The notes under the pieces were generated by a model. That model was given only the letters and a program-made list of their open reading frames with translations, had not been told where the DNA came from and ran no database searches. A stretch of DNA of 64,000 bases from Desulfurococcales archaeon (GTDB lineage: Archaea > Thermoproteota > Thermoprotei_A > Sulfolobales > NBVN01): contig WAOK01000002.1 in assembly GCA_015521325.1 (NCBI GenBank), forward strand, positions 70,756-134,755. The letters are read 5' to 3'. The position numbers and the translations under genes are program-made. Shown piece by piece: positions 14,706-16,169 of this stretch (the first letter of the stretch is position 1; every line of letters starts with the position of its first letter).

Positions 14706-15539
14706 TTAGTTTTGTCGAATGTTCCTCCGATAGAACAGGAGCTCCCTAATTATAGCTAGAAGTAAGTCCTCACCTACTTTCTCTATGAGGGCCTTCGGCA
14801 AAGACCTCAACACCTCCTGAGGAGATGAAAGCTCCCAGTATGAAGTGATTACCCAGAGCACCGAGTCTAGATGGAGTGAGGGAACCCTGCTTATATCAGC
14901 AACAATTCCCCAAGCCCTAGCAACGATTCTGTACCTTCTCATGAGTTCCTCAATACTGCTGCCCCCCTCTATGAGGCCCGAGAGTATTGATGCCCTCGCC
15001 ACCCTCCTATCGACCGGGATAGGTATCTCTGTTGGCAATACATCGGGGTTACCGGCTGCTCTCCTCCCATAATACGCCATTTTCACAGAGAATACCACTG
15101 TTTTCTTGTCTTTCTGCGTTCTCAAGCACCTAGCTGTCTCGTGCCAAAGCCCGACATAGTCGCCCGTCCTTATGAAGCCCTCTACTTCCCCGCATCCCTT
15201 GATAATATCGAGCCTATTCAGTTTCTGTCGAACCCCGAACCTATGGACAGAGCGGGTGAAGTCTTTCACAGCCTCCACCGTAGGCTCCCAACCTCTCGGG
15301 CAACTGCTAGCTATATGTTCCGCAAATAGCGCCCAGTACTTCTCACCTTTCATAGGGAGCATGTAGCTGACTAGGGCGTTAATGTAGAATGAGGTGGCGG
15401 CCGTTCCCGGACAATTCGCCTCTATCGTTATTGCCGACTTCATCTGCGGATCCTCATCCTCGAACGCTTTAACGCCGCGAACACCTAATTGGCAAAACAG
15501 CGCACCCAGTTCCCTAGCCCTTTCCTTGTTTATGAACAA
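14706..15539 (-). CDS. Archaeal 8-oxoguanine DNA glycosylase/lyase (AGOG family)
   Basis: 277 aa. Segments I recall from Pyrobaculum AGOG: INALVSYMLPMKGEKYW, KKTVVFSVKMAYY, LPTEIPIPVDRRVAR, PSLHLDSVLW. TTG start. Confidence 0.75.
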   Translation of the reverse strand: MFINKERARELGALFCQLGVRGVKAFEDEDPQMKSAITIEANCPGTAATSFYINALVSYMLPMKGEKYWALFAEHIASSCPRGWEPTVEAVKDFTRSVHRFGVRQKLNRLDIIKGCGEVEGFIRTGDYVGLWHETARCLRTQKDKKTVVFSVKMAYYGRRAAGNPDVLPTEIPIPVDRRVARASILSGLIEGGSSIEELMRRYRIVARAWGIVADISRVPSLHLDSVLWVITSYWELSSPQEVLRSLPKALIEKVGEDLLLAIIRELLFYRRNIRQN

Positions 15540-15540
15540 C

Positions 15541-15548
15541 CTATATCT
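15541..15548 (+). promoter_or_regulatory. TATA-like box (CTATATCT) about 25 nt upstream of the C/D box sRNA
   Basis: Spacing to the first nucleotides before the C box (about 15568-15571) fits the archaeal TATA-to-TSS distance. It sits at the AGOG start, so it may be bidirectional or coincidental. Confidence 0.3.
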
Positions 15549-15565
15549 CCCACATCAATTTCCTA

Positions 15566-15624
15566 ACGGGATGATGAGTTTTCGGGGAGAGTGAGCGGTG
15601 ATGAAGCGGTTACTCGCTGATGCA
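15566..15624 (+). ncRNA. C/D box sRNA (2'-O-methylation guide)
   Basis: C box AUGAUGA 15571-15577; 13-nt spacer GUUUUCGGGGAGA; D' GUGA 15591-15594; 3-nt loop; C' GUGAUGA 15598-15604; 12-nt spacer AGCGGUUACUCG; D box CUGA 15617-15620. This is the canonical archaeal 50-nt architecture, in a 90-nt intergenic gap, followed by T-rich CCTTTAATCGTTTATC. Confidence 0.7.
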
Positions 15625-15629
15625 GGCCT

Positions 15630-16169
15630 TTAATCGTTTATCATGAGCTCAACATAGGCTGGAAGGAAAAGAAGGGCGGACACCAGTTCGGGCACCGCAG
15701 CTCCCGGGGGTATGCCCATCACAAAATGAGTAGCCCAAGCAACTACCGATATAGTTGCGGCAACGATTGCCCACATCCTCCTCCGTCTTACCGCGTAAAG
15801 GATTAGGAACACAGTGATAACTACGAAGAACATCGCTGATACTACGTAGTGTAGGTGATCAAACCTAATGTCATACACTTCATCATAGACAGCGATGAGT
15901 TGAAGAAAGAAAGAAGCCAAGAGAAGCGTAGCTGATAGTACACGGTCCCTTCCCCAGAGATAAGCGGTTGCCTGGATTACAAGAAGGAATGATGTTATTG
16001 TTAGGCCTAGGTTAAAGATGGGAGCGGACGGGGATCTTATAGCATGGCCAAGATCGCTGAAGGCGTTTCGACAGAGGCTAAAGCCGGGGTACATCAGTGC
16101 AGAGACCGTTATGGCTAGGAAAGGAGTTATTACTGTCGCGATCACGAGGAGCGCCCGGTTAGCTCTCAT
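15630..16169 (-). CDS. Polytopic membrane protein (DUF998-like)
   Basis: 179 aa with about 6 TM helices. The FSDLG motif after TM1 recalls DUF998. Confidence 0.45.
   Translation of the reverse strand: MRANRALLVIATVITPFLAITVSALMYPGFSLCRNAFSDLGHAIRSPSAPIFNLGLTITSFLLVIQATAYLWGRDRVLSATLLLASFFLQLIAVYDEVYDIRFDHLHYVVSAMFFVVITVFLILYAVRRRRMWAIVAATISVVAWATHFVMGIPPGAAVPELVSALLFLPAYVELMIND

Follow-up and report, generated by a model that had tools for sequence, protein, structure and literature searches.

The window analyzed here, a stretch of 64,000 nt, contains a gap of 90 nt between two minus-strand genes, and the locus raises the question of whether this gap holds a gene of its own and, if so, what its product would act on. 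The original prediction had placed a compact archaeal double-guide box C/D sRNA on the plus strand of the gap. The architecture of the locus, its frequency in the genome, the targets of both guides, the conservation of the RNA among relatives and its relation to published sRNAs are detailed below.

Architecture of the locus between the AGOG and DUF998 genes

The sRNA gene occupies the space between the gene for an AGOG N-glycosylase/DNA lyase (14706-15539, minus strand; PF09171, E 2e-48), which diverges from it, and the gene for a DUF998 membrane protein (15630-16169, minus strand; PF06197, E 2.7e-13), which converges on it and has its stop codon 10 nt past the D box of the sRNA. Direct reading of the plus strand recovered the predicted compact layout of four boxes, with 50 nt from box to box (15571-15620). 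The C box AUGAUGA (15571-15577) is nearly invariant in an alignment of 14 sequences (alignment A1) and is followed by the 13-nt D' guide GUUUUCGGGGAGA (DNA GTTTTCGGGGAGA; 15578-15590), assigned by its pairing with the 23S rRNA of the same genome, and by the D' box GUGA (15591-15594), read directly. The first base of this D' box is degenerate (GUGA, not CUGA), and the D' boxes of relatives read AUGA, UUGA, CUGA or CCGA. A 3-nt GCG loop leads to the C' box GUGAUGA (15598-15604), which was identified by direct reading and in alignment A1, as was the D box CUGA (15617-15620). Between them lies the 12-nt D guide AGCGGUUACUCG (DNA AGCGGTTACTCG; 15605-15616), assigned by its 23S rRNA pairing and by a second, weaker match to 16S rRNA. 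The C'/D' motif would form a K-loop, and a weak terminal stem, with at most one G:U pair, adjoins the C and D boxes. The ends of the gene (15567-15625, plus strand) are approximate and were set from similarity to relatives, from sub-threshold Rfam matches covering 15567-15622, and from a match to model R1, a sequence-only model built from alignment A1, at C41:86323-86378, which corresponds to window positions 15568-15623.

A TATA-like element, CTATATCT (15541-15548, plus strand), is situated 23-30 nt before the C box, in agreement with the distance of about 25 nt given originally. The identical element is found at an equal distance from the C box in a genome of the same genus (G001), and many other orthologues have TTAA/TATA-like elements some 27-35 nt ahead of their C box. 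The element would fit an independent promoter for the sRNA. No oligo-T run of four or more residues follows the gene; the sequence past the D box (CCTTTAATCGTTTATC) contains two TTT runs only, so that the downstream T runs noted originally do exist and their description as a T-rich tract was generous. The 66-aa plus-strand open reading frame at 15394-15594, which had been set aside as spurious, has no Pfam match and is largely antisense to the AGOG gene, and we agree with that assessment. Only 2 nt separate this TATA-like element from the probable TTG start codon of the AGOG gene (15539, minus strand), so that the gap leaves no space for an AGOG promoter. The AGOG gene may be co-transcribed with the DUF998 gene, across the antisense strand of the sRNA.

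A strict regular expression requiring four boxes at archaeal spacing was run against the window, the 1.72-Mb genome and 10 genomes simulated with a third-order Markov model. It matched once in the window, which upholds the claim that this is the only such locus there, eight times in the genome and in none of the 10 simulated genomes, and the pattern is therefore not a product of chance. Judged by this pattern, the seven other loci (C5:20834, C41:153240, C50:35535, C50:36619, C51:149500, C51:55321(-) and C63:15901(-)) are probably unannotated C/D sRNA genes as well. Two of them sit on contig C50, about 1.1 kb apart.

At Rfam gathering scores no family matched in the window. A search by E-value aligned 16 archaeal C/D families over their full length at 15567-15622, all of them sub-threshold, with sR5 (32.2 bits, E 7e-6) and sR28 (25.7 bits) scoring best, and across the whole window the C/D families matched at the sRNA locus only. 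The covariance models thus fail to support the prediction formally only, at the gathering score, while their 16 sub-threshold matches speak in its favor. The archaeal C/D models of Rfam are tied to particular guide sequences. Both sR5 (RF01304) and sR28 (RF01136) align full-length with the boxes and spacing of the window RNA, and sR28 also has the UUUCGGG stretch of its D' guide in common with it. The gathering scores of these families are nevertheless 40 and 39, respectively, and as the guides differ the window RNA is not a member of either. The published Sac-sR22 RNA, discussed below as an orthologue, likewise falls under every Rfam gathering score, and the missing match is attributed to the lack of an Rfam model for the sR22 family.

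Predicted guide targets in the 23S rRNA and their covariation

The genome is a 103-contig assembly obtained from a hydrothermal-vent metagenome, and covariance-model searches for 16S and 23S rRNA found neither in it. A blastn search with the rRNA of a relative (G027) located two pieces: on contig C3 the 3' part of the 23S rRNA, in which an intron separates positions 1-119 from 773-1094, and on contig C26 the initial 414 nt of the 16S rRNA. The intron of approximately 653 nt (C3:120-772, L172) interrupts the 23S rRNA fragment near E. coli position 2534 and carries the gene for a LAGLIDADG homing endonuclease of 197 aa (PF14528, E 7e-21); no intron is present at this site in G027.

Both guides gave 11-pair matches when compared with the 23S rRNA fragment on C3. 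The D guide pairs contiguously with GGGUAACCGCU (C3:972-983) over guide positions 2-12, forming 10 Watson-Crick pairs and one G:U pair at position 3, with a mismatch at position 1 and a duplex energy of -19.1 kcal/mol. The D' guide forms 11 contiguous Watson-Crick pairs with CUCCCCGAAAA (C3:1005-1017). By the N+5 rule the targets had been proposed as CGAGU*AACCGCU and UCUCC*CCGAAAAC, and this register proved right, the starred bases being U976 and C1009 of C3 for the D and D' guide, respectively. The accompanying suggestion of an orphan or a tRNA/mRNA-directed guide has to be abandoned in favor of these 23S rRNA matches. The N+5 pairs are A:U and G:C and thus Watson-Crick in both duplexes. A MAFFT alignment with E. 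coli rrlH equated U976 with U2739 and C1009 with C2772. Separated by 33 nt, these sites flank helix 97 in domain VI, and in the complete 23S rRNA of G027 the same two sites are found at positions 2892 and 2925. The predicted modifications are Um at U2739, directed by the D guide, and Cm at C2772, directed by the D' guide.

Comparison with relatives set the RNA apart from its surroundings. A BLAST search with 221 nt around the locus against 40 related genomes yielded matches in 13 of them, and beyond the same genus only the RNA matched; boxes and guides are both kept and the flanks are unrelated except within the genus. Conservation of the boxes in relatives, which the original prediction had suggested comparing with that of the guides, is therefore found for both elements, with the similarity confined to the RNA. 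The stretch UUUUCGGGGA of the D' guide is invariant in alignment A1. Model R1 matched in 65 of the 151 genomes sampled from the class, always as a single copy except for two copies in G019, and matched once in the genome studied here. At least 12 families have kept the sRNA amid changing neighboring genes. The AGOG and DUF998 genes flank it in the same genus only, and in genus g3 the AGOG gene lies about 1 kb away. Without a conserved linkage to AGOG, we propose no functional connection with DNA repair. The shifting neighbors resemble those of Pyrobaculum sRNA genes as described (Lui et al. 2018). DNA contigs of four vent runs compared over 15200-16000 showed 24 variable sites, none of which fell within 15556-15634; approximately 1.8 would be expected in the 59-nt gene, and the difference is not significant. 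A scan of genome contigs with the pattern TGATGAN{2,3}TTTCGGGG proved too loose, the matches listed being almost all bacterial, with three archaeal ones, and resembling chance matches.

The sRNA and its 23S rRNA target region were extracted for 24 genomes to follow changes on both sides of the duplexes. Three compensations were observed. A change from CCCCG to CCCCU in the 23S rRNA is accompanied by a C to A change in the guide in six Sulfolobaceae genomes, a change from CCUCCCC to CCACCCC is accompanied by an A to U change in the guide in G032 and G092, and a change from GGGGUAAC to GGGAUAAC is accompanied by a C to U change in the guide in G167. One exception was found among the relatives, G119, in which the guide has an uncompensated mismatch to its own 23S rRNA. 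Nearly all orthologues keep a Watson-Crick pair at the N+5 base of both duplexes. This comparative covariation is the strongest evidence available for a functional pairing between the guides and the 23S rRNA.

Relation to the published sR22 family

Two published sRNAs detected by RNA-Seq allowed us to place the window RNA in a family. Sac-sR22 was reported at position 701895(+) of the S. acidocaldarius genome with the sequence ATGATGA-ATTTTAGGGGAGC-CTGA-TAG-GTGAGGA-TGCGGTTACTCG-CTGA (Dennis et al. 2015, BMC Genomics 16:632, PMC4644070), and IHOsR422 was reported at position 393805(+) of I. hospitalis, with RNA-Seq coverages of 816 and 360, respectively (Dennis et al. 2015, PMC4644070). In the 23S rRNA alignment of that study S22, I422, K66, P122 and T40 are marked over E. 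coli positions 2735-2775, and two targets within 100 nt represent the standard double-guide layout (Dennis et al. 2015, PMC4644070). One match of model R1 (G070:C1:701899, E 1.2e-10) is identical to Sac-sR22 letter for letter and lies at the published coordinate, and another (G082:C1:393806) coincides with the published coordinate of IHOsR422.

Sac-sR22 has the box order, the 13- and 12-nt guides and the 3-nt loop between D' and C' in common with the window RNA, as well as the predicted 23S rRNA sites and the secondary 16S rRNA complementarity. Its D guide GCGGUUACUCG is identical to that of the window RNA over 11 nt, and its D' guide UUUUNGGGGAG is one base apart, a difference that matches a G to U difference in the Sulfolobus 23S rRNA target. 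The two RNAs differ in their C' and D' boxes (GUGAGGA and CUGA in Sac-sR22, GUGAUGA and GUGA in the window RNA) and in their genomic neighbors, which are not AGOG and DUF998 in S. acidocaldarius, and the window RNA belongs to a vent lineage that is uncultured and falls into another family. For Sac-sR22, expression was seen by RNA-Seq. The I. hospitalis sR422 RNA, with the D' guide UUUUCGGGG and the D guide GCGGUUACCC, is directed to the same 23S and 16S rRNA regions as the window RNA, but it has degenerate boxes (AUGAGG, CCGA) and a longer D'-C' spacer, and its D guide of the CCC type fits the G run of the 23S rRNA better than the CUCG ending of the window RNA. With two homologous guides that address the same pair of 23S rRNA positions, and with guide changes that track their targets, the window RNA is by these comparisons an orthologue of Sac-sR22 and I. 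hospitalis sR422 and a member of a family known to be expressed.

Other likenesses are more partial. The published 23S rRNA alignment has a mark near E. coli C2772 for the Methanopyrus kandleri RNA sR66 (MKAsR66; PMC4644070), in which GUUUUCGGGGAG takes the place of the D guide; the other guide of sR66 is unrelated and is marked elsewhere in the 23S rRNA. This likeness suggests guide shuffling or convergence and not simple orthology. Within the family itself, the orthologues of genus g16 (L158, L168 and L170; G117, G169 and G122) show a 5' end that appears duplicated (ATGATGATGAAC...), in which more than one UGAUGA is a candidate C box, and a D' guide stretched to 17-18 nt, whose pairing with the 23S rRNA reaches 12 bp. 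In G036 (L014) the D' guide stretch UUUUCGGGGA is retained, but the D guide is swapped for the unrelated GCUUUCAGCGGG, which found no good match within the 23S rRNA segment examined. By comparison with its orthologues, G036 is a case of guide replacement inside the sR22 family.

The protein partners of such an RNA are encoded in the genome, with fibrillarin (PF01269, 340 bits) and Nop5 (PF01798, 266 bits) adjacent on contig C79 and L7Ae (PF01248, 112 bits) on contig C67. The architecture, the sub-threshold Rfam matches, the conservation confined to the RNA and the partner genes all agree with the double-guide sRNA that had been proposed. Window positions 15567-15625 (+) very likely encode a double-guide box C/D sRNA that is orthologous to sR22 and guides modification at 23S rRNA U2739 and C2772; we infer its transcription, its assembly into an RNP and the methylations. 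The product of the locus would be a box C/D RNA roughly 55-60 nt long. If it behaves like the archaeal C/D RNPs that have been characterized, its C/D kink-turn and C'/D' K-loop would be occupied by L7Ae, and Nop5 and fibrillarin would assemble next on the L7Ae-bound RNA. The guides would then pair with the pre-23S rRNA, and fibrillarin would 2'-O-methylate the base paired with the fifth guide nucleotide counted upstream from D or D', which for the D guide is the U equivalent to U2739 and for the D' guide the C equivalent to C2772. The double guide could also hold the helix 97 region together during ribosome assembly.

A possible 16S rRNA target, alternative roles and significance

The D guide might have a second target. 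Besides 23S rRNA U2739, it may methylate, or at least pair with, CUAGUAACCGCG of the 16S rRNA (E. coli U1348), and the CUCG 3' end of the guide would be a compromise between the two rRNAs. In G027 and G011, two relatives, nine contiguous Watson-Crick pairs with the 16S rRNA can be formed, with pairing at the N+5 base. Guide position 3 is a U that wobbles with a G in the 23S rRNA and pairs with an A in the 16S rRNA, and the G at position 1 pairs with the 16S rRNA only. The CUCG or CUCA ending recurs in the organism's own genus, in G170, in G027, in all Sulfolobaceae and in G043, while the CCCAN ending of most other lineages forms only eight pairs with the 16S rRNA. This CCCAN ending suits the 23S rRNA better, and in the lineages that carry it the methylated base is predicted to shift by one nucleotide to the preceding G. 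In the published alignments S22 and I422 are marked on the 23S and the 16S rRNA alike, in the latter near E. coli 1345-1350 (Dennis et al. 2015, PMC4644070). The 16S rRNA duplex is nevertheless weaker (-15.1 versus -19.1 kcal/mol for the 23S rRNA), and a 9-bp match to a conserved rRNA is possible by chance. Moreover, the pairing is seen in the sequences of relatives, the organism's own 16S rRNA assembly consisting of the first 414 nt without the 3' part, and in the family member G004 the 16S rRNA is divergent at this site. We consider a second target in the 16S rRNA possible, though less likely than not. Somewhat more doubtful is the further proposal that the CUCG-ending D guide has been selected for bispecificity, such that one 12-nt antisense element would serve both ribosomal subunits through 23S rRNA U2739 and 16S rRNA U1348, with the compromise form recurring in separate families of the order and sister lineages keeping the form directed to the 23S rRNA only.

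An alternative role would be that of an rRNA-folding chaperone, in which both guides pair around helix 97 to organize domain VI and methylation is secondary or absent. The two targets bracket a hairpin at their distance of 33 nt, a chaperone role for double guides was proposed by Dennis et al. 2015 (PMC4644070), and the predicted methylated base in the D duplex of relatives moves by one nucleotide (the U or the preceding G) with pairing retained. As a main function this is improbable, as nearly every orthologue has Watson-Crick pairing at N+5 in the two duplexes, which is expected under selection for methylation, and as the methyltransferase genes are encoded in the genome; a chaperone role is in any case compatible with methylation. 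Chance or decayed boxes, the 66-aa open reading frame, or an antisense or cis-regulatory element of DUF998-AGOG are the least credible explanations: the locus does lie between two co-oriented minus-strand genes, so that read-through transcription would run antisense to the sRNA, and lacks an Rfam match at gathering score, but the four-box motif is absent from the simulated genomes, the RNA is kept in at least 12 families despite changing neighbors with guides that covary with the rRNA, the open reading frame matches no family and is for the most part antisense to AGOG, and the reverse complement of the locus contains no kink-turn boxes.

Read as a guide RNA for the 23S rRNA, the locus is an ordinary non-coding gene that had gone unannotated in the metagenome-assembled genome of a vent archaeon, and it leaves the understanding of the C/D guide system unchanged. 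Annotation that relies on Rfam only will miss archaeal C/D sRNAs, as its models are guide-specific and do not include one for the sR22 family, for which alignment A1 and model R1 could serve as the seed. The presence of sR22 in 65 of the 151 sampled genomes shows that this guide family is widespread in the class, and the clean covariation makes the two 23S rRNA sites beside helix 97 good candidates for conserved ribose methylation in thermophilic Thermoproteota.
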